A stretch of DNA of 37,957 nucleotides. It comes from Asterionella formosa (Eukaryota). Below the pieces are notes generated by a model, which saw nothing but the letters and a program-made list of their open reading frames with translations, searched no databases and was not told the origin of the DNA. Both the position numbers and the translations under genes were made by a program. The first letter of the stretch is position 1, and each line of letters begins with the position of its first letter. The stretch covers positions 1 to 37,957 of the forward strand of contig NKIB01015153.1 of NCBI GenBank assembly GCA_002256025.1, read 5' to 3'. Positions 1,886 to 35,400 of the stretch are shown piece after piece.

Positions 1886-4800
1886 ATGAAACGTCATCCA
1901 ATGGTTCGTATTGCCATGGTTGGGGCACTGATGCTCATTGGTAGTTCAGTATCGTCGTTTGCTCCATTGACTAGGCTGGATCGAATCTGGGGGTACGTGT
2001 GTATGTGTGTGTGTGTGTATTCAGTTGTCACACAATCAGTTGTTATTCAGGTGTCTCTCACACAAAATACTACATTTTTTTATAAAGGACTTCGTTGTTG
2101 TTATCGACGACCTTGGAATCCAGTAATAGTGGCAGCGGTACTAGTGATACGCCTCTCAGCAATGAAGATGATACACAACAACGACGACCCACGAGACAAT
2201 ACAACACTCCTGGACGCGCGACACCATCGGCTTCCAGGCCATTTGATGCTGGTCGTGGAAGAGGAAATAGAGGAGATTCAAGGAGTATTGGTGGAAGAGG
2301 AGAGGGACGTGGACCACAAGGTCGTGGAGGTGGTAGAGGTGGATTCGAAGGAGGACGTGGAGGAGGGGGAAGGGGTGCATTTGAAGGACGCGGCGAAGGA
2401 GGACGGGGAGGAGGGGGACGGGGACGAGCTGAGTTTGGACGAGGACCAGCTGGTCGAGGAGGTACGCTGTTTTATCTAATCGATTCTCTGCTTGCTCATT
2501 GCGTTTTTGTCGTTCTCTGGAATGTCATGCGTGACTAGTTGCACTTTCACTCACACACACCCAAAAACTCAGGAGGTGGCCCTAGTGAGGATGGCCCAGT
2601 CTTGAAGTTGGTGAACCCACTCAAGTTGCAACGCACAGTATTCATCCCTCCTCCAAGACCTGCCTTTGATCGTGCTCAAGAAAATAATAACTCCAGAGGT
2701 CCTCCTTCAAGAAATAGTCCTGCTGCTAATCGTTCAGTTAGACCAGTAACTAGTATTGGAGACAATGCCGGAGGCGACTCGGATGCAGACGGTAAGGGGT
2801 ATTGTTGCTGTTGCTGTTGCGAACAAAACTAAACGGAATTTATATATACGCCCTTCATACCGGCCAAAATTTTGACCTGACGTTTATTTGTTAATTTTTC
2901 TTGTTATACTGACACTCCAGGCGGGTTTACCGGAAATGTTATAGGTGTCAACAAACCAGCGAAACGTGGGGCGCCTGCCAAGGTCGTGACCAAGGTATAT
3001 ACGAAGAAGGATGGGGGAGAAGATGCTAGAAACGTTAGAAAGAATTCCTTAAAATTGGGAACAACCAAAAAAGGACGTGGTGCTGGTGAAACGATGCGTC
3101 GTGGTTCCTTGAGAAAGAAAGATCGTTCGGCAGAAAGAGAACGTCGAATGGAAAATGCGTTGGAAGCTAGAACTGTACAATTACCGGAGTAAGTCTTGGT
3201 GGCGTGGAGCGAACGTGACGCACATACCCACACACAATTTTGTTTTCTCACCCGTGAATTTGGTATCCTATAGCCACCCTGTGCCAGTATCCGAGTTGGC
3301 AGAATTGATTGATGAAAAACCAATTGCCATTATCAAATTTCTCATGACAGATCTTGGTGTCATGGCATCGATTACTCAGAATTTAGACCCAGCAACATGC
3401 ATTGCGGTTGCAGAAGGATTCGGACGCATTGTTGGGGAATTAGGCGATGACGAATATGATGATGAAATGAGAGATATGATTGAGGAAGGTTATGAAGATA
3501 CTGCTGTCGCCACTGGATTTGCTGACTATGAAGATTTCGAAGAGGATCTTCAACCTCGTTCCCCCGTCATCACTATTATGGGACATGTTGATCACGGCAA
3601 GACATCGCTTTTGGATGCTATTCGGAATACTAAGGTCACTGCTGGAGAGGCAGGTGGGATCACTCAACACATTAACGCCTATCAAGTTATTCACAAGGGG
3701 CAACAGATTACCTTTATTGATACTCCTGGTCACGCTGCCTTCACAGATATGCGTGAGCGTGGTGCCAATATTACCGATATTGTTATCCTTGTCGTTGCTG
3801 CGGATGATGGGGTCAAGCAACAGACTGCTGACTCGATTGTTTGTGCTCGCCAAGCTGGGGTGCCTCTCATAATTGCAATTAACAAATGCGATCTTGAAAC
3901 TGCTGATCCATCGAGAGTTATGTCTGACTTGACCGCCTACGATATTTTGTCGGAGTCACTTGGAGGTGATGTCCTCACAGCTGAAATAAGCGCCAAGACA
4001 GGGTCTGGATTAGAGGATTTACTAGACAAGATTATGCTTCAAGCGGAAATTGAAGACTTGACTGCCAACCCCAACAGAGCTGCACAAGGAGCCATCGTCG
4101 AGGCTCGCATTGAACGTGGTCTTGGAACCGTTGCTACTACCCTGATTCAGAAGGGAACCATTCGAGTTGGCGACAACTTTGTTGCTGGTTCCAGCTATGG
4201 TCGCGTTCGCGCTCTCATTGCTACAGATGGAAAGACACGTCTGACGGAAGCTGGTCCGAGTACACCAGTGAATGTGGTTGGTTTCGAGGGAGTTCCTGCT
4301 GCTGGTGATATTTTGGTTGTGGCAGATGACGAGCAAAGTGCACGACTAATTGCTGAGAACCGTAAACGACTATCTCGTGAGAAAGAGTCCTCTCAATACC
4401 AGTCTGGGTTAATGGGCTCCGTTAGCGCTTTGTTTGGAGGTGAAAGCAAGGAAAAGCGTGAAATGTGTGTTGTTGTCAAGGCTGACGTGTCCGGTTCGGC
4501 GGAGGCCCTTACGCGGGCACTTCGCGAACTCAAGCTTGAGAACGACGAAGCCACTGTCACGATTAAGGTGTTAGTCAGTGAAACTGGAGAAGTCACCAAG
4601 AGTGACATTGCTGTTGCTGGAGTGTCGCCTGACACCACCGTCATTGCATTTGGTGTTTCTGCTAGTTTTGACGCCATGGAGGACGCTAGGGCACAAAAAA
4701 TCCCTATTGAGTACTTCAACATTATCTATGACGCCATTGAATCTGTCGAATCTCGTATGCAAGAGGTTCTTTCACCTACCCCTGAGGGAGAGTATGTTGG

Positions 4801-5065
4801 CGCTGCCACTGTACAAGAAGTCTTTAACATTGGAGGTACCGGAAACATTGCTGGTTCTCGGTGTACAAATGGGTACATTCGAAAGGGAGCCAATGTCCGT
4901 GTCATGCGTGGTGACAAAATCCTCAAGTACACCACTGTCAAAACTCTGCGGAATTTCAAGGCTGAAACAGACCGTATCGAAGGCGGAAATGAGTGCGGTA
5001 TTGGATTGGCTGACTTTGAGGACTACCAGTCAGGTGACGTTATCGAATGCTTCGTCATTGTGTAA
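1886..5065 (+). CDS. infB: Plastid-targeted translation initiation factor IF-2. Exons 1886-1992, 2088-2461, 2573-2791, 2921-3188, 3274-5065 (about 919 aa).
   Basis: G-domain motifs GHVDHGKTSLLD, GGITQHI, DTPGHAAF and NKCD are present, followed by the IF2 C-terminal domains (KADVSGS, IIYD, ECGIGL). The N-terminal signal peptide ends VSS-FAP (ASAFAP type). Four GT-AG introns join the ORF pieces with consistent phases. Confidence 0.95.
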
Positions 5066-5803: not shown

Positions 5804-7744
5804 TCAAGCACGATAAGCATGACTAAGCGACGGAGGCGGAGGCGAATTTTTCTTGGATTCCACCATTTTCGCAAGATAGAGAAAGCCAAGAACTTTCGAC
5901 ACACTAATCATGACGCTTCCGTTCGATCCTGGGTCTGTCGACGACAGCATTCTTTTCTTGTTCCCCACTGCCATGGTTGAACCGTCTTCATAGTAGAGAG
6001 CTAGATCAGTCCAATTCTGGAATGCCGAAGCACATTGGAGACACTGGTCAACTAACTTCGAAAATAGGTCACGTCGGTACCCATCAGTATTGGCGCGGTG
6101 GTTACCACGTTCGAATTTTTGACAATCCCATTCGCCATATACCAAATGGAGGGCGCACTTCATCCAATCCCGGAGTGCCACACGAGGTGGTGTCTTGCGT
6201 CGATTACGTCTGTGATGATTCATTTGGGCAATACGAAATTGAAATTGCAGTGGCAAGCGGGCCAAGTCAGCAGCTTCGGTCGATGCTCCATAGATTGATG
6301 TCACCGGAACTACTTGAGATTCTGCTTCGGTCCATAACGTCTCTGATTCCGTTTCCAACGGGTCATCGTCAGTATAGTCGTTCAACTCCCACGTGGGCAC
6401 ATTTCGATCCCAGGCGGTTGCAGATTTTTGAGAATTTATTTGCGGTACAATAGTTACTTTGGACTTCCAAATGACTGGTTTAACAATAGTCTTTTCTTGT
6501 GGTGGATTATCCAAAAAGCCAATGAGATTCCTTTGAAGAAAATCGTAATCTGGCATATCGTTGAAGCCTAGGCTAGCCACATGCTTGAAGCACTTCCGGA
6601 GAAGTTCGACCTTTTCCACATCCTTGGCTAGCTCCAATGGTTCCGGGAGATCTGCATTAAATTCTTTGCCCTCCTTCTTGGCCATGTCATGTTTATATTT
6701 GGCTAAGAAATAATCTTCCCCCATGAGCATTATTTCTGTCTTGTCATTTGCTCCATTGTCATCTCCGTGAACTTCTTCCTTGGCTCGCTGGCATGCCTCT
6801 CGATCTCGATTCGCCGCATATGACATCCATGGCAAACCGCCGGTTATCAAATCACAAAAAACATATAACAAAGACCACATGTCGTCACGAAACGAGTAAT
6901 CCTTGCCTTGATGGACCCGCAAGGATGCATACATGCTCGTTCCCCTAAATTCAGCACTTGGTCGTTCGTTCCGTAATTTCAACGAGCCACTAAAGTCTCC
7001 TCCCGCATCATGATGACCCTCATCGACCACAATACTTTTTGATAGCCCAAAATCCACCATGGCAAACTCCTTGTAATCTCGCCTGACACAATTACTAGGT
7101 TTCACATCACGATGTACCACCCCTGCCATGTGCATTTCTCTGAGTAGTGGTAACAAGACATGCGCTGACAAGTACACAGCATCTTCCCCTGTCATGCGCC
7201 TCCCGCCAGTCGCGTCTCTAAGTTGATGCATGTCTTCTCCTCCCAAAAATTCCATGACTAGGGCTGACGCTGTGTGTGAGGGCGTATTGGATACATACAA
7301 TCCCATGTAGATTGGAACCGTCTTGGGCTTGACTCGGTGATCCAAATGAGACAATATTTGCCCTTCGCCTTCCAAGACTCCCGAATCTGTGTAATTGTCC
7401 AATTCAACCTTGGCCGCGACCAATCGCGGTTTTTTGGTGGCATTGCTGCCGCTGCTGCCATTACACTGATAATGATAATTCATATCAATACATTTGTGAA
7501 TGGAGCAAAATGTGCCCTTGCCCAATCGTCCCAGACAAAAGTAGGGACCCAACATGGACCCTGGTTCAGGAAATGCACCTTGACATTCGACTTGCTGAAT
7601 GGGCTTCATCATGTGCTTGTGATAGCTGGACGCCGAGGACAGGGCAGGGGCTATGCCAGTCATCAGTAGTGCGGGCGCTTCGGATCCTGGAGCGGAAAAG
7701 GAAGGTACGGGGCTTTGAGGGGTTCCAACGGCGGACTGAGACAT
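5804..7744 (-). CDS. Ser/Thr protein kinase, casein kinase 1 / tau-tubulin kinase-like (646 aa, single exon)
   Basis: Kinase motifs LGKGTF, VAAK, HRDVKPSN and DFGLSK. FRGTSMYAS replaces APE and RDDMWS follows, both typical of the CK1 group. Confidence 0.9.
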   Translation of the reverse strand: MSQSAVGTPQSPVPSFSAPGSEAPALLMTGIAPALSSASSYHKHMMKPIQQVECQGAFPEPGSMLGPYFCLGRLGKGTFCSIHKCIDMNYHYQCNGSSGSNATKKPRLVAAKVELDNYTDSGVLEGEGQILSHLDHRVKPKTVPIYMGLYVSNTPSHTASALVMEFLGGEDMHQLRDATGGRRMTGEDAVYLSAHVLLPLLREMHMAGVVHRDVKPSNCVRRDYKEFAMVDFGLSKSIVVDEGHHDAGGDFSGSLKLRNERPSAEFRGTSMYASLRVHQGKDYSFRDDMWSLLYVFCDLITGGLPWMSYAANRDREACQRAKEEVHGDDNGANDKTEIMLMGEDYFLAKYKHDMAKKEGKEFNADLPEPLELAKDVEKVELLRKCFKHVASLGFNDMPDYDFLQRNLIGFLDNPPQEKTIVKPVIWKSKVTIVPQINSQKSATAWDRNVPTWELNDYTDDDPLETESETLWTEAESQVVPVTSIYGASTEAADLARLPLQFQFRIAQMNHHRRNRRKTPPRVALRDWMKCALHLVYGEWDCQKFERGNHRANTDGYRRDLFSKLVDQCLQCASAFQNWTDLALYYEDGSTMAVGNKKRMLSSTDPGSNGSVMISVSKVLGFLYLAKMVESKKNSPPPPSLSHAYRA

Positions 7745-12544: not shown

Positions 12545-13852
12545 CTACTGTGACTTGACTTTGTGCCCACCCCACTTTTTAGGCGACTTGGTCCATCCGT
12601 TGGCGGATGTGGGCCTTCTTATAGGGTTTGTGGGTATGTTCGTTCCCTTCGTTGGCCAGATGAAGTGCAAAATAACGAGTATCAACAGAAACCATAAGAA
12701 AGAATTAACAACGGTAGAACCATTGGATGCGCAAAAGGCAAGTGGTGACAGAACGCGTCCTGAAGCTTCGGTTTGCTCCAAATAGAAATGAGCCGAATCA
12801 CACACTTGCTGTAAGCCCCTACTGACAGCAGCGTATCCCTTAGTGGAATACTCCTTGATTGGCTCCCAAACTGGTTTCAAGGCAGGTTTTATGTCATTTT
12901 CCACTGTTGCCTTGGCGTGTTCATTGTAAAGCTCCTCGATTTTGGTCAAGAGTGCAGAAACCTGTGGTGCAACATTTGCTTGATAGAACTCCATGACTTT
13001 GACCGCCACTGGAGTAGCGGCCTTAATCGTTGCTTCGTACACTGGCATTGCGGCTTCCTTGGCAGCAAACCATACTTCCGTTACCCTGTCTCGCACCTTC
13101 ATAGTTGTGAAAAGTGCATCCTCGTAGATCAACGTTGTATTAATGTATGTGCTTGTTGCTTTGTCATGAAGGTGACGCATGCGTTCCTGTGCCAAAACTA
13201 GTTCCTTACGTGAATCATAATACTTGGCTTCCGCTTGTTTCAAGATTGCCTTGTGGTTTTCAACGTCTTTTGATAGTGTTTTCTTGGTATGGCTTAATTC
13301 CGTTTTATGCGATTGCAATTCATTTGTCAACTTCCTGACGTGCTCTTCTAGCTCCGATGCCTTGACTTTGTGTGCCACCAAGACCTGATTTTCAGCCTTG
13401 AGCGAGGCGAGAAGTTCCTCTGCCTCTGTCCTATACGAAGCTTCGCGTTCCATCACTTGCTCAAGGGTATCTTGGGTCGACTGGATTGTCGCCTCAAGAT
13501 TGGCAATTTCTTGTGCCTTTTCCGCTTCCAGCTGCAGGATTGTCGCTTCTAGATTAGCAGTTTCATGTGCTTTTCCCGCTTCCAGCTGCAGGATTTGTTT
13601 CTGGGCGTGATCCACATCCAGTTGTTTCGTCGCGAGTGTTTTTTCTAGAATGAGAATCGCGTTCGTCAGGTCCGTATGTTTGGATTCCATCATGGAAGTT
13701 ACTCGCTCTTCTGTTTGCTTGGCGCGTTCTGAAGCCACGTGCTCGCATTGTTGTTCCTCGCACACACAGGGAACATCTTGCGCAAAAGAAGCTGCTGCCA
13801 CGAGAAAAAGCAGCAATAAGGTGAGACTCGCCTTTGTTGTCATTTTGGTCAT
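12545..13852 (-). CDS. Type I membrane coiled-coil protein (435 aa) with signal peptide, long heptad region, C-terminal TM helix and KxKxx tail (ER-retrieval type)
   Basis: Signal peptide LTLLLLFLVAAASFA-QD; E/K/L/A/Q-rich heptads with an internal duplication (ILQLEA.KA.E.ANLEATI x2); TM FLWFLLILVILHFIW; C-terminus KVKSQ. Confidence 0.85.
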   Translation of the reverse strand: MTKMTTKASLTLLLLFLVAAASFAQDVPCVCEEQQCEHVASERAKQTEERVTSMMESKHTDLTNAILILEKTLATKQLDVDHAQKQILQLEAGKAHETANLEATILQLEAEKAQEIANLEATIQSTQDTLEQVMEREASYRTEAEELLASLKAENQVLVAHKVKASELEEHVRKLTNELQSHKTELSHTKKTLSKDVENHKAILKQAEAKYYDSRKELVLAQERMRHLHDKATSTYINTTLIYEDALFTTMKVRDRVTEVWFAAKEAAMPVYEATIKAATPVAVKVMEFYQANVAPQVSALLTKIEELYNEHAKATVENDIKPALKPVWEPIKEYSTKGYAAVSRGLQQVCDSAHFYLEQTEASGRVLSPLAFCASNGSTVVNSFLWFLLILVILHFIWPTKGTNIPTNPIRRPTSANGWTKSPKKWGGHKVKSQ

Positions 13853-14651
13853 TGGTGATTTGTGAAAGGGATTTAACCGGTATGCTTATTTTCAGCAACA
13901 AGGCGGTAAAGCAAGAGTATCGGTATATATGGGGAAGGTTGACGACGACGAATGAATTCGAAAAAGCTTTGTTCGGGTTCGTCCTCTAGATTTTTGTACG
14001 TGGCTGTTGCGGGATTAAGTGGTAGTGGTAAACACGACACAGTCGTGACATTCCTGATTCCTAAAATTGAAGTTGGTTACCAGAACCGGCATGTAACACA
14101 TACCGGGTATGTGTATACATAACATGCTGTCCCTGGAAGGTCCAGCAATTCAGATTTTGCTAAATGTCTCGATTACATGACCTTCATCTGTGGTACTGGT
14201 ACATGGTATGGGACCTGGTCCCTGGTAGTGCCAGGTACCAGATACCTTTTACCTGGTACACAGGATACCCGTGCCGGTAGTCCCTATAGACAATGACAAT
14301 AATACGGTGCCTGGTACCGTACTGTACATGCAAAGAATGACTGTTATTGTCACTTTGCTCCAAACGTGAGAGTATAATAAATACATGCATGTAAGATATA
14401 TACGGTGCAACCTGCATGGCCTATATCCAAAGGGGACAAATCTTGCATGCCTTGCTGTCATATACGAGGAGAATTAATGAAAGTGCGTCGCAATAGATTT
14501 ATGTTGATGAGACAATAAATTAGATGAGTTGAAAGAAAGGAGCTATTGTTTATAGAATGAAATAAGCATCAGAAGACATTAAATGACTGATATGACACTC
14601 CAAGATTATGACAGAATTGCATGGCATATATCAATCATAAAAAAATCAATG

Positions 14652-17600
14652 CTAGTTTGAATTCAACAATTCGACTGGAGGCATGGGAACATATTCAAAC
14701 ACTGTGAGTATGCCCAAGGCTAAAGCAGCCACAGCAAATGTGAATTTGATAAAACCTTCAAGGGGTCCACTGACCTCAGAGTTGTCAGACTGAAGAGCAA
14801 CAGATGATTTTTCATTCTCAGCAACTGCTGCAGTGCTGAAAACTTCAGATGATGAAAACGTTTTGCCTTCCAACCTATCAAGATAGCCAGCAAGCCCACT
14901 TCCACTTGATTGCGAGGAAGGCTTTGTAAGACCATCCAAATAGGTCACAGGGCCAGATCCTCCTTTGGCAAGTGAAGAAATTCCATTTATCCCGCTGAGA
15001 TAGTTATCACCAAAGCGAGATGAGGATACTGCAGGCTTTGATGCAAATGCAGGAGAGGATGATGATATTCCAGTTAATCCACTAAGATACGTAGCACCAA
15101 AGGAGGACCCACTTCTTGATGGGGTGGAAACTGTTGAGGTGGGTGTTACCGCAACAACAGGAGTGGAAAAAGTTGTGCCATTCAATGCACTTAGGTAACT
15201 AGCTCCCATGCCAATCCCCTTTACTGTCTTTGGTTTAGAATTCGAAGTAAACGGTTTTGATGTAGCAAATGGAGATGCAGAGGATGTCCCTGGTAAGCCA
15301 CTAAGATAGCTGGTACCAAAGCCTGATCCCCCTCCTGATGGGGTGGAAACTGTTGAAGCAGGTGTTACCGCAACAACTGGAGTGGAAAAAGTTGTGCCAT
15401 TCAATGCACTTAGGTAACTAGCTCCAAGGCCAGACCCCTTGACTGTTTTAGGTATAGGATTCGAAGTGAATGGCTTCGATGCAACAACAGGAGAACCAGA
15501 TGAAGATGAGGCGCCTGGCAGGCCACTGAGATAACTGGTACCAAAGCCAGATCCACTTCCTGATGGGGTGGAAACTGATGAAACTGTTTAAGCTGGTGTT
15601 TCCTCAACAACTGGAGTGGAAAATGTTTTTCCATTCAATGCACTTAGGTAACTAGCTCCAAGGCCAGACCCCTTGACTGTTTTAGGTTTAGGATACGAAG
15701 TGAAAGGCTTCGATGCAACAACAGAAGAACCTGATGAGGATGAAGCTCCTGGCAGGCCACTGAGATAACTGGTACCAAAGCCAGATCCACTTCCTGATCC
15801 CTTGGAAGCTGTTGTAGTAGGCTTTGTGGCAATAACTGGAGTGGAAAAGGTTGTGCCATTCAATGCGCTTAGGTAACTTGCTCCAATCCCAGACCCCTTG
15901 ACTGTTTTGGGTTTAGGATTTGAAGTGAATGGCTTCGATGCNNNNNNNNNNNNNNNNNNNNNNNNNNNNNNNNNNNNNNNNNNNNNNNNNNNNNNNNNNN
16001 NNNNNNNNNNNNNNNNNNNNNNNNNNNNNNNNNNNNNNNNNNNNNNNNNNNNNNNNNNNNNNNNNNNNNNNNNNNNNNNNNNNNNNNNNNNNNNNNNNNN
16101 NNNNNNNNNNNNNNNNNNNNNNNNNNNNNNNNNNNNNNNNNNNNNNNNNNNNNNNNNNNNNNNNNNNNNNNNNNNNNTGTCAATAACTGGAGTGGAAAAG
16201 GTTGTGCCATTCAATGCACTTAGGTAACTTGCTCCAATGCCAGAACCCTTCACGGTTTTGGGTTTAGGATTTGAAGTAACTGGCTTGGAGGAAGCCGCAG
16301 ATGATGACGAAAACATTCCTTGCAAACCGCTGAAGAAACCTGCACCAAAGCCACTACTTGATGTGGTGGATGAAGTTGTTTCTGGTTTTACCGCAACAGC
16401 TGGGGTGGAAAAGGTTGTGCCATTCAATGCACTTAGGTAACTTGCTCCAAGCCCAGATCCCTTGACTGTTTTTGGTTTAGGATTCGAAGTGAATGGCTTT
16501 GATGCAACAACAGGAGAACCAGATGAAGATGAGGCGCCTGGCAGGCCACTGAGATAACTGGTACCAAAGCCAGATCCACTTCCTGATGGGGTGGAAGCCA
16601 TTGTAGTGGGCTTTGCGGCTATTACTGGAGTGGAAAAGGTTGTGCCATTCAATGCACTTAGGTAACTAGCTCCAAGCCCAGACCCCTTGACTGTTTTGGG
16701 TTTAGGATTCGAAGTGAATGGCTTTGATGCAACAACAGGAGATCCAGATGACGATGAAGCTCCTGGCAGGCCACTGAGATAACTGGTTCCAAAGCCAGAT
16801 ACACTTCCTGATCCCTTGGAAGCCTTTGTAGTAGGCTTTGTGGCAATAACTGGAGTGGAAAAGGTTGTGCCGTTCAATGCACTTAGGTAACTTGCTCCAA
16901 TCCCAGACCCCTTTACTGTTTTGGGTTTAGGATTCGAAGTGAATGGCTTTGATGCAACAACAGGAGAACCAGATGACGATGATGCTCCTGGCAGACCACT
17001 AAGATAACTGGTACCAAAGCCAGCTCCACTTCCTGATCCCTTGGAAGCCGTTGTAGTAGGCTTTGTGACAATAACTGGAGTGGAAAAGGTTGTGCCATTC
17101 AATGCACTTAGGTAACTAGCTCCAAGCCCAGACCCCTTGACTGTTTTGGGTTTAGGATTTGAAGTAACTGGCTTGGAGGAAGCCGCAGATGATGACGAAA
17201 ACATTCCTTGCAAACCGCTGAAGAAACCTGCACCAAAGCCACTACTTGATGTGGTGGATGAAGTTGTTTCTGGTTTTACCGCAACAGCTGGGGTGGTAAA
17301 TGTAGTCCCATTTAGTGCACTTAGGTAACTAGCTCCAAGCCCAGATCCCTTGACTGTTTTTGGTTTAGGATTCGAAGTGAATGGCTTTGATGCAACAACA
17401 GGAGAACCAGATGACGATGAGGCTCCTGGCAGACCACTGAGATAACTGGTGCCAAAGCCAGCTCCACTTCCAGACGTAGTTGAAGGTGTTGCAGGCTTTT
17501 TGGTGTCTACAGGAGTGGAAAAGGTCGTTCCATTCAATGCGCTCAGGTAACTAGCTCCAATGCCAGACCCCTTGACTGTTTTGGGTTTAGGATTCGAAGT

Positions 17601-18125
17601 GAAAGGTTTCGATGCAATGACAGGGGTTGACAATGACGCCCCGGGCCATCCATTGAGGTAGCTCGCTCCAAAGCCAGATCTACTTTCAGACGAGGTAGAT
17701 GCAGGCAAGGGGGGTGCTGGCTGCGATGAAATGACAGGATAGGAAAACGCCGTGTCGTTCAGCGCACTCAAGTAGCTAGCTCCAATGCCAAATCCCTTCG
17801 TTGTTTTTGGTTTAGAAGTGACATGCTTCGACGGAAGGGAAGGCGACGACGTCGAGGCCCCAGGCAATCCACTGAGATAACTAGCTCCAAAGCCAGACCC
17901 TTGCAATGACGCGGCGGGTTTCGCATCTGCAGAGGTAGCGGGCTTGGATGCGACTGCAACTGACTCTGCGGATTTTGAGATACTTTCGAGGTAGGAAAAG
18001 ATGGCTGTGGGATTGTTCAGTCCGCCATTTCTGGTGAGGCTTGGATAGATCGAAATACCCTGAAAGGCTGATGCATCGGCCAGGAGAACAGCAAGAGCAG
18101 CAGAAACTCTTACTAACTTCATCAT
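14652..18125 (-). CDS. Cluster gene A: plastid-targeted tandem-repeat protein with about 28 visible SYLSxL-type motifs and a C-terminal TM helix. Interrupted by an N-gap (15942-16177) and an in-frame TAA (15588-15590).
   Basis: Presequence MMKLVRVSAALAVLLADASA-FQG. Repeat units of about 75 aa (mostly 225 nt). ORFs 15588-18185 and 14652-15404 are in the same frame and the repeats continue across the stop. C-terminus FTFAVAALALGILTVFEYV. Confidence 0.85.
15184..17900 (-). repeat. Coding tandem repeat array, 213-234-bp units, at least 12 copies
   Basis: A(A/G)TGCACTTAGGTAA-like anchor at 15184, 15403, 15637, 15862, 16213, 16426, 16651, 16876, 17101, 17314, 17536 and 17761. Confidence 0.95.
15942..16177. 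other. Assembly gap (236 N) inside the repeat array
   Basis: Run of n characters. Confidence 1.
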
Positions 18126-18341
18126 GTTCACTGACCTCAGTGTTCGCAGTCTGGGAGTATCATCGGCGATACTTCCAGTAAGCATATGCTTTCTCGACGA
18201 ATCGACAGATCGACATCAAGTTGCTGATTGCTATTTTCAGGAGGGTAAAGCGACACTGTGGGTTCAGTAACTTCATATTTTGTTTCTTAGGGCAATATCC
18301 TACGAAACGTTCCTAAATGAATGCTTGGATCGCCTGTATCG

Positions 18342-18726
18342 TGACGTGGTTTTGATATGCCTGGATTTTTCAATTTTCGAGTGCCTGGATCTATTGAATT
18401 TCGCACGCCCAGACATTTCATTTCCCTCTTGAAAGTACTGTACGTCAGCCAGCTGTCGACCTCACATATACCGGTACCTGCTGGCACAGCATCGCGTTCG
18501 GCCTCAATTTGAAATGTTCGTCGTGGTACTACAGGTTCTTATGACGTTGTTGGTACTGGTACCACAATACAGGGCGTGAGGCCGACGCACATTTAAAATC
18601 TTGCACATGCATTCTTCTTATGAAGTGTACCCGGTACCATAGATACAGATACGGGTAGAACGGTAGAAAGTTTGCGCTCGGTGGTGGCGCGCCATACTAT
18701 AAGGCAATCAACAAAAAGCATGACGT
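18342..18726. promoter_or_regulatory. Four TGACGT/ACGTCA (CRE/CCRE-like, bZIP-type) motifs upstream of gene A
   Basis: TGACGT at 18342, ACGTCA at 18442, TGACGT at 18542 and TGACGT at 18721. A further group (ACGTCA 19560, TGACGT 19568, GCGTCA 19592) lies more distally. Function is inferred only. Confidence 0.5.
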
Positions 18727-19881
18727 GGCGTGGTTTTGAACGAACACAAATTACCAACCACCTCCTCTGCTTGGCTGAAGGCTCCGGATTGGACGAAAGA
18801 TTAGATTATAACATTTGAAGATCCAGAGGACAGCATATCTGCCATTTGTTGGTGCCTATTATTTGTTCTCTGCCATGGTACCAGGTACCAGGGCACCCTG
18901 GTACCATAGGTAGTGCCACCGGTAGACTATAAGCAGCTCATGCTCCCTAGTATATGTAAAGCACCAGGGTACCACAGAAGTCTGCCCTCGTTGTTTTGTG
19001 CATCCACACGATTGTCGGCTGGTCACTATCACCACATGTGGAAAACTTCGTTTTCCAGATAGGCTACTGGTTGGTGCTTTAACATTTTAGATTACAGTCT
19101 ATATACTATAGTGACTGGATGTCTAGATTTCTGTAGTATGGAGGTACTTCGCATTTAATTCATTTCCTCCTTTCCTCCATTGGAAGACCTACCAATACTT
19201 CGGTTTGCTGCAAAAGTCCAAGTTTTGGTGAGTGGATCATTTGATGTGATGATTGGTTGTCTGGTCATCGCTGGTTGTCTGACAATGTTTGAAAGCAAGC
19301 ATTACAATTTCACTTGAATTATGTTATAACACCGGCCGTGATATCATTTTATATAGTACCGGAACATACATGGCACTTAAATGATCTATTGGAATTTTGA
19401 ATCGTATTGCAATAAGTGAGCAATACATCCATCCGCCACTTTTCCATCTGTATCCACCTGTACATCTTAAAGAATAATTATGTTGTTCATTCATTGTATC
19501 ATAATGATGATGGCTTCGCTGCAGGCCCAGAAATTTCATTTGTCACCTTGAAACTGACTACGTCAGTTGACGTTGTTTCTACGTAAGTTTCGCGTCACGG
19601 CTGCATACATACGCAACTGATGTGATTTGCATAAAGACATCGGTGTATTGCTATGTACTCATATAGAGTTATCAACAATCGTCGCTCAGCAACACAGCAT
19701 GCTATATCCTTTTTTCTACCTTCGAAAAGATACATCATGAAGGAGCGTGGCAAATACTCGCCATGTCGCTAGGTTGAAATGATGACCATTGAAATATCCG
19801 ACAACAAGAGTTGGAAGATCCGAACATATTTAACGAAGTAACAATTAACATCTCCAAGTATATTGGATTTAAAGAGATAGA

Positions 19882-21159
19882 CTACTCGAAGCTGCCAATG
19901 TCGTCCTTTTTAATTTTCTCTGCCGCTGCCTCCGTCTCCACCACATCTGCAGTAACCGAAACCTCCATCGTTGCTGAAGTAGCTTCCCCCTCCACCACTT
20001 CTGTCGCCGCATCAACAATCAATGCTGCAGAAGCCTGCGCCTCCTCCGCATAGGCTTCACTGTTTGCCTCAACCACAGCCACCCTGGCAGTAGAGATCGC
20101 ATCCGACAAAAGGTTCCACAAGCGTTCAAACGGCTTCAATTCCTTGTTCATGGTACCAACCTTGTCCGCAGTCTTTTCCACAAGATCCCCAACGAAACCA
20201 AGAGCGCTCGTTGTTTCGCCCCACAAATCATATTCATCACTAATCTCGGCCATGCGCAATACAGTGGTGTTAATGGCATTTTCGACTTTATCGATAGCTT
20301 CTGCGTCAATACCATCTTTCTCCTTCAGAGTGTCGATTGCGTCCTCAATGGAAACCTTGGCCTTGTAGACAAGGTCATACTTGGAATCCAACTTTAGGAG
20401 GTAGTTGGAAATTTCAAGGACCGTCTTGGACAAACTTTGCAACACAATACTAAAGTCGTCGTCTTGTTTGGAGAGGTAGTTGGTCATTGCGGAAACGGCA
20501 ACAGCACCAATGGGACCAGCAATGGCAAATCCAGCCACACCTCCAATGACACCAGCAGTAAACTCCACTGTGGCTTCATTGATGGCCACAAGGGCACCTC
20601 CTTGCGATTCGCGGGGACTACGCTCGCGCTGTGAAATAAATGCTTTCGTTTTCAGGAGTGCAGCAGATTTCTTCGCCGGCTCTGACACAACAGCAGGTGC
20701 GGCTTGCACTGTTTCTGGGATGGCTACGACTTCTTCAACTTGCTCAGAGACCGGGGTTTCGTCAATAATTTCAACAAGGGGTTCTGGGGAAGCCAACTCA
20801 ACCACTGGAGCATCATCAGTTGTCAATGCCTCATCGACAACTGGAGAAGGCGTTTCTGCGACAACGGGGTCTGAGTTCGACTCCACTGTTTTCCCAGGCA
20901 ATCCATCGAGGTAGCTACCGAAGGCTGATCCAGAAGCGGCAGGAGTGTCTGGTTCTCCAACAGCGCCAGTCACCTTTGCAGAATCCTCGTTCTCGTTGTC
21001 TGCATTATTCTTTGGACTCGAGATGTCGTCTAGATAGGAAAAGGCGACTGTGCGCTGATTGCGAATGCCAAATCGAGTTCCCTTCTGGTGGATGCTCAAG
21101 CTCTGCAAGGCTGACGCCGTAGCGACGAGGAGAGCAAGGGCAGCCGCTACTCGCTTCAT
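19882..21159 (-). CDS. Cluster gene B: predicted plastid-targeted protein (about 425 aa) with 2 YLDx(I/L) motifs, an acidic linker, and a glycine-zipper hydrophobic segment plus helical domain
   Basis: Presequence MKRVAAALALLVATASA-LQSLS; motifs FSYLDDI and FGSYLDGLPG; hydrophobic segment TAGVIGGVAGFAIAGPIGAVAV; C-terminal domain is paralogous to gene C. Confidence 0.85.
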   Translation of the reverse strand: MKRVAAALALLVATASALQSLSIHQKGTRFGIRNQRTVAFSYLDDISSPKNNADNENEDSAKVTGAVGEPDTPAASGSAFGSYLDGLPGKTVESNSDPVVAETPSPVVDEALTTDDAPVVELASPEPLVEIIDETPVSEQVEEVVAIPETVQAAPAVVSEPAKKSAALLKTKAFISQRERSPRESQGGALVAINEATVEFTAGVIGGVAGFAIAGPIGAVAVSAMTNYLSKQDDDFSIVLQSLSKTVLEISNYLLKLDSKYDLVYKAKVSIEDAIDTLKEKDGIDAEAIDKVENAINTTVLRMAEISDEYDLWGETTSALGFVGDLVEKTADKVGTMNKELKPFERLWNLLSDAISTARVAVVEANSEAYAEEAQASAALIVDAATEVVEGEATSATMEVSVTADVVETEAAAEKIKKDDIGSFE

Positions 21160-21991
21160 GATTGCACTAGGATACTGATGTGGTATAAGCAACAGGATAT
21201 AATAAAACAAGATAGCGAACACTTTTCCTTCTGTGGTCTCGATGATCCTTGAATCATTGGCACCACCACACATAAAATACGTATGCATGTTGCTGTGGTA
21301 TCGTATGTGTATGTGTGTACACAGGTTGATCATTCATACCGGTAGTGTGCATATTTACCAGTAAAGGTATTAGCCATCCGCTAGTAATACCGGTACTCTA
21401 CATACTCCTACACAGAACACAGCTACCTAGTATGTGATAGTATGGATGTAAAGAACCAGTTACTCTGAGTGTTACAATCCATTACTTACTATGTGTGCAT
21501 GGGGGTGTTTGTTGTCTACTCTACAGGTATGAAATATTATTTTAGTTCGGCCATTCATTCCTCACTCTGGCGAGCAAAACGAGAGGATGACGAACCGATT
21601 AGGTATACTTTGTACCGGCATATTTAAATATATACCGGGTATTAGATAGTACATCTGCAAGGCATACGTGAGCAAAGACAGGATAACAACTAAACTGGTT
21701 TCTCAGGGAGTAGTAATTCATCCACAAGGGTATCTCGAAGCTGAACTCAAACGAATGTACATATCCAGCAAGTATGACCCTTCACTGCCCTCCTCTGGCA
21801 CACCGGTGGTAGTCCTGATTATTCTAAAGTTAAAAAATGTACAGCAAAACAGAAGCTAGTAAGTAGGCAAAATTCTGGAAGTTACTACTAGACAAATAAC
21901 TAATGAATAGAGGGATAGATACAAAGAAACAAAATCTATACAGAAGCAGGACGAATTGTATTCAAACCTACTGGCACCTGCGTGAAAGATG

Positions 21992-23602
21992 CTACGAGCT
22001 AGAAGGCTCAACGTTTTTTTTGTCGGCCTTCCTGGCTTCTGCTACAGCAGCCCCCAAAGTCATGTACAATGGCATATCATCGTCACCATATGCTTCCTTG
22101 GTTGCTTCAACCACAGCCAACTGCGCAGCTGTTGCGGCTTCCATCATGCTATTGAAAAGACGCTCGAACAACTGATATTCTTTAGTGAAACTCCCAATCT
22201 TGTTCGCTGTTTTTTCAAACAGGTCGCCCACGAAGCCAAGAGCATTAGTAGTTTCAGCCCACAAGTCAAATTCATCACTAAGCTGCGCCATTCGTGACAC
22301 TGTCGCTGCAAGTGATTTTTCAACCTTATCAATTGCTTCGCCGTTGGCACCTTCTGACTCCTTGAGCTTATCGAGTGCATCCTCGAGCGATATCTTTGTC
22401 TTGTACAAAACGTCGTACTTTGAATCCAACGTTACAAGATAGTTGTACACTTCAATGGCAGATATGGCAACCTTTTGTACAAGTACACTGGCATCACCAT
22501 TTTGTCTCGACAAGTAATTTGCCACTGTCGCCGCGGCAATAGCACCCACGGGACCGGCCACGGCGAACCCGGCCACCCCTCCAAGGACACCGGCAGTAAA
22601 CTCCACTGTCGCGTCGTTCATTACTAGGACCATGGCCCCCTCATTTCTTCGTTGCCGGGGTTGACGGTCTCGCTTGGCAACAAATGGTGGAGGATTCGGG
22701 TCGACTAAAGGTTCCACTGTCACGCCATTGTTCAATCCATCGAGATACCCCCCGGAGAAAGGTCCAGTCGAGCGATACACCGGCTTTGCAACGTTATCAT
22801 CGGAAGAAATACTAACATGAGATGTTTTAGCATAATCCGCATTCTGCGCTGCGACCTCCGAATCAGGAATCGTCGATCCTGATAAACTACTTAAATAGCT
22901 GGCCCCGAAACCAGACACTTTGGCTGAAGATGGAAGAGTTGTCGTCGCAGCGGATGCTACCTGCGGTGAACCAGGAAGAGTTGAGGTTCCTGACAATGCA
23001 CTGAGATAACTAGTCCCAAAGCCAGATGATGCACTTATTGATGCAGAAGGTGTTGTTTCAAAACCATTCGTGTAAGCTGGTGTACTTGGCAATGAACTAA
23101 GATAGCTAGCCCCAACGCCTGTCCCTGTCGTCGCTGAAACTGGCGTTGAAGGAGGGACATGATGTGTTGTCACTGCCGGAGTGGCGAGCTTCGTTCCCGT
23201 CAATCCACTAAGATAGCTAGAACCATATCCAGGTCCACCCATAGTAGCTGACACTGGAGGAGTGCGATTAGCAACACTTTCGAGATAAGAAGAAGTCCCT
23301 TGCACTCCTTGAACGGGTGCTTTCTTGAACGAGTCCTTTGAAAGTGAGTTGAGGTATCCTCCTACATCGGCAGTGGCACGCGTTTCTTCGCCATTCACGG
23401 CCCCGGAGTCATCTAGGTATCCATGAAAACCAGGCCCTTTCGGGGTTTCGCCATTGTAGTTAGATAGGCTATCAAGGTACAAAAAGGCTGACGTTGGCTC
23501 CTTTCGAACGTTTGCTGACTGTTGATGGACTGAGAAACTTTGCACGGCTAAAGGAGAAGGCGTAGCCAGGAATAACGCGAGAGCAACGTAAACCCGAATC
23601 AT
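21992..23602 (-). CDS. Cluster gene C: predicted plastid-targeted protein (about 536 aa) with 9 YLxxL-type motifs and the same glycine-zipper/helical domain as gene B
   Basis: Presequence MIRVYVALALFLATPSPLAVQS-FSV; motifs GYGSSYLSGL, GVGASYLSSL, GFGTSYLSAL, GFGASYLSSL and others; hydrophobic segment TAGVLGGVAGFAVAGPVGAIAA. Confidence 0.87.
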   Translation of the reverse strand: MIRVYVALALFLATPSPLAVQSFSVHQQSANVRKEPTSAFLYLDSLSNYNGETPKGPGFHGYLDDSGAVNGEETRATADVGGYLNSLSKDSFKKAPVQGVQGTSSYLESVANRTPPVSATMGGPGYGSSYLSGLTGTKLATPAVTTHHVPPSTPVSATTGTGVGASYLSSLPSTPAYTNGFETTPSASISASSGFGTSYLSALSGTSTLPGSPQVASAATTTLPSSAKVSGFGASYLSSLSGSTIPDSEVAAQNADYAKTSHVSISSDDNVAKPVYRSTGPFSGGYLDGLNNGVTVEPLVDPNPPPFVAKRDRQPRQRRNEGAMVLVMNDATVEFTAGVLGGVAGFAVAGPVGAIAAATVANYLSRQNGDASVLVQKVAISAIEVYNYLVTLDSKYDVLYKTKISLEDALDKLKESEGANGEAIDKVEKSLAATVSRMAQLSDEFDLWAETTNALGFVGDLFEKTANKIGSFTKEYQLFERLFNSMMEAATAAQLAVVEATKEAYGDDDMPLYMTLGAAVAEARKADKKNVEPSSS

Positions 23603-23944
23603 GATGGCAGCTCTGTGTGCCCCTTCGATGCAAGCGAGACCCAACTAATATTGTGCTATTGCTATGACGAACAATAGTGAGAAAAGTGACAACTAATTTT
23701 TGTTTTGATAGAAAGGATTCGTATCATTATATTTTACATATATTCTACTACCCCTATCATGGATGATGCCTTTCTACGTCCCACATCAATTTCTTTGATG
23801 TGTAGATATGACAAGCGCGATGATGTATCAAAGCCAGCATGATTGTTACGCACACATCATCAGCACTGATATATATGTATCGTACATGATCGGGAATATG
23901 ATTCTAGCTGGCCGTTTTGTTACACGCCATTATTTAGTTGACCT

Positions 23945-24002
23945 ACGTCAGCCTTCGACGTCAACGACAAGAACTTTGACGAGCAACGTCATCGCAACGT
24001 CA
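23945..24002 (-). promoter_or_regulatory. Dense cluster of four TGACGT (CCRE-like) motifs 340-400 bp upstream of gene C
   Basis: ACGTCA on the plus strand at 23945, 23958, 23986 and 23997, all in the same orientation. Confidence 0.6.
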
Positions 24003-32447: not shown

Positions 32448-35400
32448 CTAAATATCTTTCTTTCCTCCCTCACCCAGGGGATCGATGGAACTATACCGAT
32501 CCATCAAGGCAAATATATTGCCTGCTGCAGCCTTTGCTTTCTCCCTGTTAGTTGCTCCTTGTGCAGCGATTGCCAAACCGTTGAGGGAGAGGAGGAGTGA
32601 AAACATGGAAATCAGAAAATCACGATACTCAAACTTGGAAGGGTACTTCAGGAGCAACCAGCCTCCCCACCAAATCATCAAGGCAACTCCCCACATTTGA
32701 AAGAATTGACCAAGACCAGATGACAACCCTTTGATAAAGTTACTCTGGAATGGATGAGGGTCCTCCTTCCGAAGGGCACATTCATATTCAGCATTCCGAC
32801 CTGTCTCGGCTGTTAGAGATGCAACAGTTCGCATATTTAACAAAGTTTCCACAACAATACCTCCAGGAGAATTTTCGTCATCCTTCTGTTCCACCTCATC
32901 AGGTTGTCCCATATACATTTTCATTTCCATTTCAGCACCAAATGCCATGAAAGGGAGAATGCACAATGTCAACAATGCAAAGGGCCACATGAAGAAGAAT
33001 GACACTACCAACCCCACAGCAACACTAGATGTGTTCATGACCAATGTACGTATAGGCTCTCCACTTTTTGAATATAGGAGGGTTAAATTCACGTCCATGA
33101 TAAAAATTGACAACTTACTAGACCGTTTTGCGGTGAAAAAAAAACGTACCTAAAGGAGTGAATCAGAGCAGCATCGTCCTGAATCTGGCTTGTTATTACT
33201 CCAACAGGTCGAAGATCGAAGAAACCAACTTCTTGACGAATAAGTGCATTAAAAGCAGCATCACGGACGCGCTTGTTCATTCGCTCCGATGCTGTTCCGA
33301 ACCCTAATAGAATAATGAATTTTCATTTGTTATCGCCCAGCTTTAAAGCACATTTTGTGTATACCAGAAAAGTCGATACACAAGAAAACTCACCATAAAA
33401 AAGCAAAATATTGCCAATAAGAGAAGCTACAATTACCCCAATGCACCCATATGTAATTTTGAATGATAGCTGCTTCATATCTTCAGAGGTGAAATCGTAG
33501 AATTCCTGGCAAGTTTGGAAAGGAGGCGGAGGGGGTTCAAGCGCACTTCCATCTATGCAAGGATATACAGGAGTGTATAGAAGATCAATCTACAGGTAGA
33601 GAGTGTCAGAAACGATTGCGCCGAAATGATTTGAGCTTAGGATCGCCTTTTGAGCACAAACAGTACCATAATTCGCACTCACCATGTAAGCAAAAATGAA
33701 CTGTTGAACGAAAAGTGCATTTTCAGTGAGAAGAAAGTAAAAGTTTTGGATTTATCTCTGCCTTGTACTTACACCGAAGCCTGGGAAAATGAGTCCAGCG
33801 AGTATAGCTCCAATTGTCCCAATCAGAAAATACGACCTATCTGGGGTGGCCAATTCCCATGCCCGCCTAGCGTTCCTTTTGTCAATATCTTTTTTAAGAT
33901 CATAACACTCCTTTTGTTCCAACCTGTGCTTGGTGGACCTCTCGCTCTTACTATCTGGTGAATCGTGAAGCATGGTGTTATTGTGGTTGGACACCAAGCC
34001 TCTTGACTCGCGCTTACGCGTTTTGTCGGTGTCCAGGTCTTGGAGCATTTCTAATCGCTTGTAGTGGCCGCCTGGCAGTGACATCAACTCATCGCGGGAG
34101 CCGATCTCGAGAACTTTTCCGTCTGCGATAACAGCAATGCGATCAGCATTGCGGATTGTTGAGAGTCTGTGGGCGATGACGACAACTGTCTGTGATTTAT
34201 CCTCCATAATTTTATCCAATGCCTCCTGAACTACATTTTCACTCTCACTGTCAAGGGCACTGGTTGCCTCGTCGAGAAGTAGAATTCTCGGTTTTTTTAT
34301 CAACGCCCTTGCGATAGCAATTCGTTGCTTCTGACCACCTGAGACTAATGTTCCTCCAGAGCCTACAATCGTGTTGTACTTATCCGGGAATTGCATGATG
34401 AAATCATGCGCGTTTGCTTGTTTCGCCGCATCTTCGATCTGGGCTTGGGTTACTTGGGGGAATGAAAAGCGGATGTTCTCCGCTATCGTAGCGTCAAACA
34501 AGACAGGCTCCTGACCTACGAGCCCGATCTGATCTCGTAAATACTTCACATTTATTTCCTTCACGTCGATCCCACAGATTTCAATGGTTCCCTTTGACGG
34601 ATCATAGAATCTAGCGAGGTAGACACGGAAGTGTAAACCGAGTGAGAAATAAGACTAATGAAAGCGGACGTGGAGATAGTAGTTTTTCAAACATACCTTT
34701 CCATCAGTTGAACCGTACTTGATTTGCCATGTCCAGAAGGACCGACCAAAGCCAATGTTTCTCCTTCCATCACTGTAAGGTTCAAACCTCGGAACACTTT
34801 ATTATCTGGACGCGAAGGATACGAGAAGTGAACATTGCGAAACCTCACGAGCACTCCAGTGTCGGAGGAATCAAGGCCGATATGTTCTTCTGTGTAATGA
34901 ACATCGTCACCAATATTGCCATGCGACGAATTAGGGTTTGACGAGAGGCTAGCATTGGATTCCTCGCTTTCTGATTTCTTAGCTGTTTGAGCGTCAACAA
35001 GAAGCCAATAATGGCCATGTTTGGCCATCAACTCGTCGTGGGGACCTTGTTCAACAATGATCCCTTTGTCGACCACTGCAATGAGGTCAGCATTGCGAAT
35101 GGTGCTCAAGCGATGTGCTATGACGATTGTTGTCATGGTACCTTCTTGTAAAAGGCGATCAAGGGCCTCTTGGACGACGCTCTCAGAATCGCTATCAAGG
35201 GCTGATGTTGCCTCGTCAAGTAACAAAATCTTGGGCTTTTTTACCAATGCTCTGGCGATTGCTATCCGTTGCTTCTGACCTCCAGACAATTGTGCACCAT
35301 GATCACCGACATTAGTTTCATATCCGTCAGGAAACGAAGAAATAAATTCGTGAGCATTTGCGTTTCTTGCTGCTTGTTCTATTTGTTCTTTCGTTGCGTC

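Follow-up and report, generated by a model that had tools for sequence, protein, structure and literature searches.

What do three adjacent genes fasten together when their products repeat the same short tyrosine-leucine motif and then run into what looks like a membrane anchor? This question is raised by a contig of the freshwater diatom Asterionella formosa (NKIB01015153.1 of GenBank assembly GCA_002256025.1), which was analyzed at its full length of 37,957 nucleotides and is referred to below as the window. The genes, here designated A, B and C, are co-oriented, just as the original prediction, made from the DNA letters before the present analysis, had stated; they lie on the minus strand and are intronless and transcribed (Table 1). 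Their products would be nucleus-encoded chloroplast proteins that act as membrane-anchored sticker-and-spacer scaffolds. We propose that they are tethers of the pyrenoid, a compartment that in diatoms accounts for a large share of global CO2 fixation, and we give this proposal an even chance of being right.

The YL motif and its setting

The consensus of the motif, drawn from 38 instances, reads G-Φ-G-[AT]-S-Y-L-[SD]-[GA]-L-[NP]-G-[TA]-[TS]-[FS] and is wider than the hexapeptide by which it had been described originally; in all three proteins the motif is set in flexible linkers rich in Ser, Thr, Pro and Gly. Its first copies, FSYLESI in A, FSYLDDI in B and FLYLDSL in C, had been placed soon after the presequence and were found there, with their Tyr at residues 45, 42 and 42, respectively. 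The predicted totals of about 28, 2 and 9 copies agree with our counts of at least 28 in A, 2 in B and 8–9 in C. The copies in A comprise 26 YLxx[LIVMW] motifs and 2 FFSGL variants, spaced 34–39 (about 36) residues apart, and the DNA encoding them includes tandem repeats of 225/234 nucleotides (15109–15941 and 16181–17624), each corresponding to 75–78 residues. The number of 28 is inflated by tandem duplication, and it is also a minimum, because a gap of 236 N interrupts the array. Gene B encodes, besides its 2 linker motifs, one NYLLKL inside the folded domain, and gene C encodes 8 motifs, to which come the variant GYLDDS and, within the domain, a single NYLVTL. In C, the motifs near the N-terminus are of a YLD type resembling Diatom pyrenoid component 2 (DPC2, see below), and those in the middle are of the SYLSxL type seen in A; the copies in gene C are not tandem repeats at the DNA level.

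The recurrence of the motif in A, B and C is far from chance. In A, 26 of the 30 Tyr residues lie within a motif, compared with a mean of 0.32 and a maximum of 3 in 2000 shuffles. The part of C that precedes the domain has 8 motifs (shuffle mean 0.17, maximum 3), and in the corresponding part of B both of the 2 Tyr residues are in motifs (shuffle mean 0.02). The rest of the window contains only one [GSTAN]YLxx[LIVM] in open frames of more than 100 codons. Sorting signals of the YxxΦ type, the YxxL of immunoreceptor tyrosine-based activation motifs and the [WFY]xx[LIV] of LC3-interacting regions all need an aliphatic residue at position +3. These readings of the YL motif were dropped, as its aliphatic residues are at +1 and +4, not at +3. 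No description of a YL-type motif was found in the literature; the supplements of the study by Nam et al. (bioRxiv 10.1101/2023.10.26.564148) and its Cell version, which lay outside the search, may bear on this.

The mature A protein has an isoelectric point (pI) of 10.0, consists of Ser, Thr, Pro, Gly and Ala to 64%, and bears KPKxxK stretches in its S/T/P-rich repeats. The spacer of B is acidic and rich in Glu, Pro and Val (protein pI 4.25), and the C protein has a pI of 4.94. None of the three proteins contains Cys.

A signal peptide followed by F, W, Y or L (ASAFAP-type) is the plastid-import signature of diatoms. All three proteins begin with a hydrophobic region, a cleavage-type site and then a short transit-like stretch: A starts with MMKLVRVSAALAVLLADASA followed by FQ, B with MKRVAAALALLVATASA followed by LQ, and C with MIRVYVALALFLATPSPLAVQS followed by FSV, its presequence ending in ...PLAVQS. 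Sites were scored with a home-made rule, [AGSCT]x[AGSC] followed by [FWYL], in place of ASAFind/SignalP. Those of A (ADASA before F) and B (ATASA before L) fit this small-x-small plus F/W/Y/L pattern, and that of C (VQS before F) was recognized by eye, having been missed by the strict regular expression. In the wider family of proteins that share the C-terminal domain of B and C, 81 of the 113 N-complete members fit the rule, 52 of them with F, and many of the 32 misses have xA before F when inspected by eye, or are truncated. ASAF-type sites are thus present in A, B, C and most relatives, which bears out the bipartite plastid presequences of the original prediction.

A hydrophobic segment C-terminal to the motifs, which the original prediction had also claimed, was located in each protein (Kyte–Doolittle means are given in Table 1), and that of A is a predicted tail anchor. 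In B, C and their orthologs, a conserved basic F(V/I)xxRERxPR stretch precedes the Gly-zipper helix; by the positive-inside rule, the basic RERxPR before the helix would turn the motif region toward the stroma. The hydrophobic segments would sit in a plastid membrane.

The anchor domain and the likeness to DPC2

B and C have about 200 C-terminal residues in common, at 51% identity, which comprise a Gly-zipper helix and a helical region. When 1.84 billion proteins were searched with a profile seeded by these two domains (consensus VEFTAGxxGGxxGFxxxGPxGA...NYLSK...YNYLxKLDxKY...DLVEK), 242 representatives matched at E ≤ 1e-3, of which 133 also passed E ≤ 1e-10 and 27 passed E ≤ 1e-30. Most family members are only 180–240 residues long, with the domain directly following the presequence. 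The named members come from Phaeodactylum (B7FNX7/PHATRDRAFT_42612), Stephanopyxis, Rhizosolenia, Astrosyne, Chrysoparadoxa, Heterosigma, Phaeomonas and Dinobryon, all of which are ochrophyte algae, and the family looks ochrophyte-wide and uniformly plastid-addressed.

No Pfam family covers the domain, the recurrent matches (DUF1664, C19orf12-like and DUF7201) being very weak, with E of 0.002–0.09. An AlphaFold2 (AF2) model of the domain from a single sequence was poor, with a predicted local distance difference test (pLDDT) of 50.4; the model from 50 sequences was all-helical and of moderate confidence (pLDDT 71.7, predicted template modeling score 0.43). A Foldseek comparison of the domain model with the PDB gave no match at E ≤ 0.001, the VIA wide fold search returned generic helical hairpins only (best Z 6.5), the best E of a PDB profile search was 0.054, and an Atlas search returned only uncharacterized diatom clusters. 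A literature search found no description of the domain and, for B7FNX7/42612, nothing beyond one table row of PMC4619725, in which the protein is labeled 'predicted protein'. As far as these searches reach, the Gly-zipper and helical anchor domain shared by B and C is undescribed, and hence new here.

The association of motif and domain was assessed in 129 family members with a located domain, the window proteins being excluded. An N-terminal extension of at least 60 residues is present in 42 of the 129, and 16 of these 42 carry YLxx[LIVM]. The extended members hold 42 motifs in total, compared with 1.5 expected (standard deviation 1.2, maximum 6 in 500 shuffles), and among the 87 short members the motif occurs in none. 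The carriers are partly close kin (P0002/4/5 and P0006/7/8); distant carriers are P0016, P0018, P0022, P0028, P0041, P0044, P0055, P0060 and P0115. P0078, which has its motifs behind the domain, is not counted among the 16. When these 42 and the four of P0078 are taken together, 40 of the 46 instances have G or S directly before Tyr, and the consensus is [GS]-Y-L-[DSEGN]-x-[LIV]. The valency classes recur among the relatives, with 2–3 motifs in B-type and 4–9 in C-type proteins, so that the graded valency of the original prediction has gained ground, and the linker function attached to it is still a proposal.

In orthologs of B the spacers have diverged, and conservation extends over the presequence, both motifs, the juxtamembrane stretch, the domain and the GSFE at the terminus. 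As far as the sequences go, such motif islands in diverged linkers are the usual picture for short linear motifs. The GSFE (19882–19896, minus strand) is the invariant, exact C-terminus of B, P0006 and P0008, where it follows a poorly conserved acidic tail, and it may be a C-terminal recognition motif. Several relatives (P0053, P0044, P0068, P0075, P0077, P0084, P0115 and P0126) have an N-terminal xFQR(S/T/A)LL(x)A(R/K)(I/L), either in place of YL or together with it, with three FQR-type copies in P0053 and one YL and one FQRTLL in P0044; the domain looks like an all-purpose anchor on which short motifs can be swapped. Within the domain, residues N83-Y84-L85-L88-D89 of the nearly invariant helix segment YNYLxKLDxKY (22351–22371 and 20389–20409 of the window, minus strand) resemble the free YL motif.

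The frame of gene A holds no Gly-zipper and helical anchor domain, and A is related to B and C only via the presequence and the motif region. In two close relatives, P0002 and P0004, A-type repeats and a C-type domain are joined in one protein, which indicates that gene A is a paralog that has kept the linker and has a tail anchor of its own.

The N-terminal motif regions of C and B gave weak matches to the Pfam profile of DPC2, far below its curated cut-off (PF25195, cut-off 70 bits; Table 1). P0055 of Stephanopyxis turris combines a DPC2 match of 57.6 bits at residues 47–140 with the same anchor domain at 194–360, and P0078 reached 42 bits with a DPC2-like part lying behind its anchor domain; other relatives scored 15.8–23 bits (P0002 23, P0004 22.2). 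By coordinate arithmetic, the motif Tyr residues correspond to approximate profile positions 22, 72 and 92 in P0055; 22, 46, 70 and 92 in P0078; 45, 71 and 92 in C; and 46 and 71 in B. These recurring positions suggest that the DPC2 model may be an array of about four YL motifs some 24 residues apart. The DPC2-like regions of P0055 and P0078 also contain a CxxD...EEC element before the YL array. A search with the DPC2-like part of P0055 returned only P0055 itself, an Atlas search with the same part gave no usable match, and no named Thalassiosira protein was returned by a profile search with alignment A2.

DPC2 is described in the available text of Nam et al. (bioRxiv 10.1101/2023.10.26.564148) as an abundant Rubisco interactor of Thalassiosira pseudonana that is confined to the pyrenoid and has no predictable function; its co-purification with Rubisco and its localization in the matrix are reported there for T. 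pseudonana only. The same text states that Thalassiosira has no homolog or analog of PYCO1 or EPYC1 and no repeat protein of the expected kind, and it leaves DPC2 as the prime, unexplained candidate. No named family had been recognized at this locus originally. DPC2 is now the nearest one, and that statement has to be qualified accordingly, though the threshold is not reached and A is unmatched.

Candidate functions of the three proteins

In the mechanism that we favor, the YL motifs would be short binding stickers of the same kind as those that build DPC2. The three proteins would therefore be expected to fasten a multimeric component of the pyrenoid to a membrane, for example a pyrenoid-penetrating thylakoid. 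A would act as a basic, highly multivalent, tail-anchored cross-linker, and B, with 2 stickers on an acidic spacer, and C, with 8–9 stickers, would be lower-valency anchors that hold the same client via the Gly-zipper domain. The transcription of A and C would be under CO2/cAMP control via clusters of the TGACGT element. Within this mechanism, we infer the membrane insertion, the topology, the pyrenoid address, the client and the CO2 control. Rubisco would be the most likely partner, a choice that we make only tentatively; PyShell or another matrix protein could take its place.

The pyrenoid idea gains two independent hints beyond the original prediction, the sub-threshold DPC2 matches and the TGACGT clusters. 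TGACGT occurs 17 times in the window, with 15.5 expected, which is about chance overall. Ten of the 17 sites are upstream of A (starts at 18342, 18442, 18542, 18721, 19560 and 19568) or C (23945, 23958, 23986 and 23997). The cluster at gene C has 4 sites within 58 bp, and none of 300 shuffles reached 4 in 60 bp. According to the available text of PMC11142338, TGACGT/C is targeted by PtbZIP11 in Phaeodactylum and serves carbonic anhydrase and bestrophin genes that are inducible by low CO2 as their CO2/cAMP-responsive element. The clusters upstream of A and C suggest CO2/cAMP-responsive transcription.

Several observations weigh against a pyrenoid tether. TGACGT is absent upstream of gene B, and it is also a generic bZIP site, so that the promoter clusters can only hint. 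The DPC2 matches of B, C and all relatives are below the 70-bit cut-off, and two fragments carrying most of the A motifs gave no DPC2 match at E ≤ 1, which may be due to the SYLSxL subtype of A lacking Asp or to the bias correction of HMMER. Moreover, the view that DPC2 is built of YL motifs was derived by arithmetic on match coordinates. Most anchor-domain proteins, including B7FNX7 of Phaeodactylum, are without the YL motif, and the family reaches non-diatom ochrophytes, so that the domain is not in itself a marker of pyrenoids. B and C are acidic, unlike the known basic linkers. The Gly/Ala-rich helix may be buried in a soluble bundle instead of a membrane, its insertion being argued from hydropathy alone, and the premature TAA in gene A, if real, would remove the tail anchor.

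Some of these points would fit with another task in the plastid, such as the spacing of thylakoids or girdle lamellae, envelope–thylakoid contacts, or the attachment of nucleoids or plastoglobules. The YL motif would then bind some partner that has nothing to do with the pyrenoid, and the likeness to DPC2 would arise from low complexity or from a coincidence of motifs. The anchor domain is ochrophyte-wide and mostly motif-free, the DPC2 scores are below threshold with none for A, and no fold or family match yields a function, all of which is as would be expected for such a task. However, the motif Tyr residues fall at about the same DPC2 profile positions in four proteins, one member from a centric diatom reaches 57.6 bits, cAMP-responsive element (CRE)-like clusters of the type found at genes of the CO2-concentrating mechanism lie upstream of A and C, and A bears the signature of repeats, pI and probable disorder that has been used to find Rubisco linkers. 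We consider a different plastid role to be a real, although rather unlikely, alternative. Less probable still is a homotypic network, in which the YL motif would bind the family's own helical domain, through its NYLxxLD segment, or would self-associate, and A, B and C would polymerize on the membrane with no external client. Such a network would account for the occurrence of motif and domain in cis across distant members and in either order, for the resemblance of the N83-Y84-L85-L88-D89 segment to the motif, and for the position of A, which is without the domain, beside two genes that have it. Positive evidence for it was not obtained. A complex prediction of the helical domain (residues 58–205) with residues 120–250 of gene C, made without controls, scored 0.00 and counts neither for nor against it; the gene C residues in it had a pLDDT under 50. 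A point against the network is that DPC2 appears to be without the domain, judging from the 105 residues of the Pfam model, and is nevertheless in the pyrenoid. A homotypic network is also compatible with the tether reading rather than exclusive of it.

The two remaining alternatives concern gene A alone, or the address of all three proteins. Gene A could be a decaying pseudogene or an artefact of repeat assembly, with only B and C functional, as the in-frame TAA and the 236-N gap inside the array would suggest. The TAA could reflect allelic variation, the decay of a pseudogene or a mistake in the assembly; no alternative letter at this place is listed in the aligned contigs, whose cover at that spot was not shown. 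We nevertheless find decay or misassembly quite improbable, since no other stop interrupts the more than 1100 codons of the frame, in which the motifs are conserved, both unique ends are under RNA contigs in three RNA runs, and near-identical A-type repeats exist in the intact relatives P0002 and P0004. It is hardly credible that the proteins are secreted or frustule-associated Ser/Thr/Pro/Lys-rich repeat proteins, whose signal peptide would lead to the secretory pathway and not to the plastid. They do have an ER-type signal peptide and S/T/P-rich repeats, with KPKxxK stretches in A, but the residue after the predicted cleavage site is F, L or W in all three and in most relatives, the shared domain family looks uniformly plastid-addressed, Cys is absent from all three proteins, and no known frustule family was matched.

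The tether reading can be extended to a more specific proposal, which we regard as possible but doubtful as a whole. According to it, [GS]-Y-L-x-x-[LI] would be the Rubisco-binding, pyrenoid-addressing motif of diatoms, a red-lineage counterpart of the Chlamydomonas code, common to the soluble DPC2 and to a membrane-anchored family. A, as a giant, basic, tail-anchored protein with 30 or more stickers, would nucleate the Rubisco matrix on the thylakoid that penetrates the pyrenoid. B and C would serve as anchors of lower valency, and low CO2 would induce the whole set via TGACGT. If this were true, it would answer what condenses Rubisco in diatoms that are without PYCO1. A short, countable motif would turn the question of the diatom Rubisco linker into direct experiments.

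Features and surroundings of the locus

The coordinates of the features discussed above are collected in Table 1.

Table 1. Positions in the window of genes A, B and C and of the elements assigned to them
Feature	Positions	Strand	Details
Gene A	14652–18125	minus	one long frame, about 1157+ codons
Gene A signal peptide	18066–18125	minus	ends ...ADASA, then F (ASAF-type)
Gene A tandem repeat array	15109–17624	minus	periods 225/234/450 nt, 80–83% matches (Tandem Repeats Finder), Ns within
Assembly gap, 236 N	15942–16177		inside the gene A repeat array
In-frame TAA of gene A, residue 846	15585–15587	minus	Ser codon at this place in parallel repeats
Gene A hydrophobic tail FIKFTFAVAALALGILTVF	14697–14753	minus	Kyte–Doolittle 19-residue mean 2.18; 14 residues before the stop
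Four TGACGT	18342–18726	both	217–596 bp upstream of the gene A start codon
Inverted TGACGT pair and one TGACGC	19560–19597		between the gene B 3' end and gene A
Gene B	19882–21159	minus	425 codons
Gene B, residues 37–96	20872–21051	minus	Pfam PF25195 DPC2, 17.8 bits, E 0.0045, profile 41–84 of 105
Gene B anchor domain	19972–20640	minus	basic juxtamembrane FISQRERSPRE, Gly-zipper hydrophobic helix and helical region
Gene B hydrophobic segment VIGGVAGFAIAGPIGAVAV	20494–20550	minus	Kyte–Doolittle 19-residue mean 2.03
Gene C	21992–23602	minus	536 codons
Gene C, residues 29–93	23324–23518	minus	Pfam PF25195 DPC2, 25.2 bits, E 2.2e-5, profile 32–102 of 105
Gene C anchor domain	21995–22690	minus	PPFVAKRDRQPRQ, Gly-zipper helix, helical region of about 170 residues
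Gene C hydrophobic segment VLGGVAGFAVAGPVGAIAA	22532–22588	minus	Kyte–Doolittle 19-residue mean 1.85
Four TGACGT (CRE-like, bZIP-type)	23945–24002	minus	343–400 bp upstream of the start codon of gene C, each oriented like the gene

Transcription was judged from contigs of three RNA runs, one a poly-A RNA-seq run and the others metatranscriptomes, aligned to 14300–23700. These contigs cannot rank expression, and no splice joints were seen in them. They cover 14547–15201 and 17574–18245 of gene A, with many further pieces in the repeats, 19819–21241 at gene B and 21840–23686 at gene C. The spacers 18382–19637 and 21522–21835 are essentially without RNA contigs, yet they are covered by the DNA run. 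For gene B, an open reading frame (ORF) of 483 codons, also found in P0009, begins at an upstream ATG at 21333 (extension 21160–21333); the shorter gene model is likelier, because the RNA contigs reach only 21241 and the signal peptide starts at 21159. A shallow contig from DNA run X1 connects 15639 with 16221, across the N gap of gene A, and has 5 other letters in between; it suggests variants in repeat number or a collapsed assembly. A metatranscriptome contig, X5, has 30 letters unlike the window from 14587, just past the gene A stop, and a 1-base insertion at 14638, probably reflecting a strain difference in the 3' untranslated region of the gene.

Public protein sets contain a 99%-identical copy of the gene C protein (P0001) and a near-identical copy of the gene B protein (P0009). 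The B–C stretch was present in 20 of the 24 listed runs, from 13 studies, and 8 of these runs were RNA; their source labels were freshwater, lake, estuary or algal metagenome. A scan of metagenomes for syntenic loci turned up nothing beyond one weak match and a contig of 1.7 kb from the same organism. Conservation of the cluster is hinted at only by B-type P0008 and C-like P0163, whose longest reported contigs have the same length, 20281 nt.

The next gene downstream of A (12545–13852, minus strand) encodes a protein of 435 residues with a signal peptide ending in ...VAAAS before FAQ, a coiled-coil region with internal repeats (LQLEAGKAHETANLEATI and LQLEAEKAQEIANLEATI) and a C-terminal hydrophobic helix. 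YL motifs are absent from this protein, and none of its Pfam matches is better than E 0.15; it may be a fourth plastid-addressed membrane protein of the cluster. The surrounding genes are ordinary nuclear genes, at 3155–5065 (plus strand), 5804–7744 (minus strand) and 32448–36404 (minus strand). The products named among them are an IF-2-type translation GTPase, a protein kinase and an ABC transporter; the transporter is split over several ORFs, probably by introns.

Comparison with known linker and tether systems

The protein type represented by PHATRDRAFT_42612/B7FNX7 (representative P0017, E 1.8e-47) has the C-terminal Gly-zipper and helical domain in common with B and C. In contrast to them, it is about 240 residues long and has neither YL motifs nor a long linker. 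DPC2 is, like B and C, a diatom plastid protein, and its profile is matched by their N-terminal motif regions, with P0055 uniting a near-threshold DPC2 region and the anchor domain of B and C. The CxxD...EEC element of P0055 and P0078, however, is missing in A, B and C, and the available text of Nam et al. (bioRxiv 10.1101/2023.10.26.564148) reports DPC2 as a matrix protein, with no stated membrane anchor and no repeat or motif.

PYCO1 of Phaeodactylum tricornutum, the only diatom Rubisco linker listed in the available text of an April 2026 review (PMC13655443), resembles A as a diatom plastid repeat protein with sticker motifs. Its stickers are described there as KWSPRGGS and GTGYNP and the protein as a soluble component of the matrix, whereas A ends in a hydrophobic tail. 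KWSP, WSP, GTGYNP and GYNP do not occur in A, B or C, in agreement with the original prediction, which had called their motif distinct from the KWSP type. As neither PYCO1 sticker is present, we rejected membership in PYCO1 for all three proteins.

The FLIPPer search for linkers asks, in the available text of bioRxiv 10.64898/2026.07.16.738900, for at least three repeats, a largely disordered protein and a pI above 8. A has its tandem array with 28 motifs, C has 8 motifs without repeats at the DNA level, and B has only 2. The pI is above 8 in A (10.0) and below it in B (4.25) and C (4.94). Disorder was judged by proxies only, namely the S+T+P+G+A content of A (64%) and the pLDDT under 50 of C residues 120–250. 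The linkers of the SUPA1/CsLinker type reported in that text are like A, which is repetitive and basic, and the 34–39 residues between the stickers of A compare with SUPA1 spacers of about 40. They differ in being small, soluble green-lineage proteins with 5–6 helical stickers; A exceeds 1100 residues, carries no fewer than 28 stickers and ends in a predicted tail anchor.

The closest parallel in logic is provided by Chlamydomonas, in which, according to the available texts of PMC7673724 and PMC11649565, the motif [D/N]W[R/K]xx[L/I/V/A] is carried by the linker EPYC1 and by the transmembrane proteins RBMP1 and RBMP2, and attaches the matrix to tubules. There, as in the system proposed here, one short aromatic-x-x-x-aliphatic motif occurs in many copies on a disordered linker and on membrane-anchored proteins, with the aromatic and aliphatic residues four positions apart in both motifs, and the Chlamydomonas motif has been proposed to attach the Rubisco matrix to the membranes that traverse it. 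The motif itself is a different one and unrelated in sequence: [D/N]W[R/K]xx[L/I/V/A] has no occurrence in A, B or C, which have only 1, 2 and 1 Trp, respectively, and membership in the Chlamydomonas Rubisco-binding-motif proteins (RBMP1/2, SAGA1/2 and EPYC1) was rejected on this ground. The motif of A, B and C is Y-L-x-x-L, flanked by Gly and without Trp-Arg, it belongs to another lineage with another form of Rubisco, and it is known here from sequence alone. Within the sticker-spacer and tether proteins of pyrenoids, the sticker motif and the type of membrane anchor would be new. If the pyrenoid reading is true, the principle of placing one motif both on a linker and on membrane proteins would have arisen independently in the red lineage.

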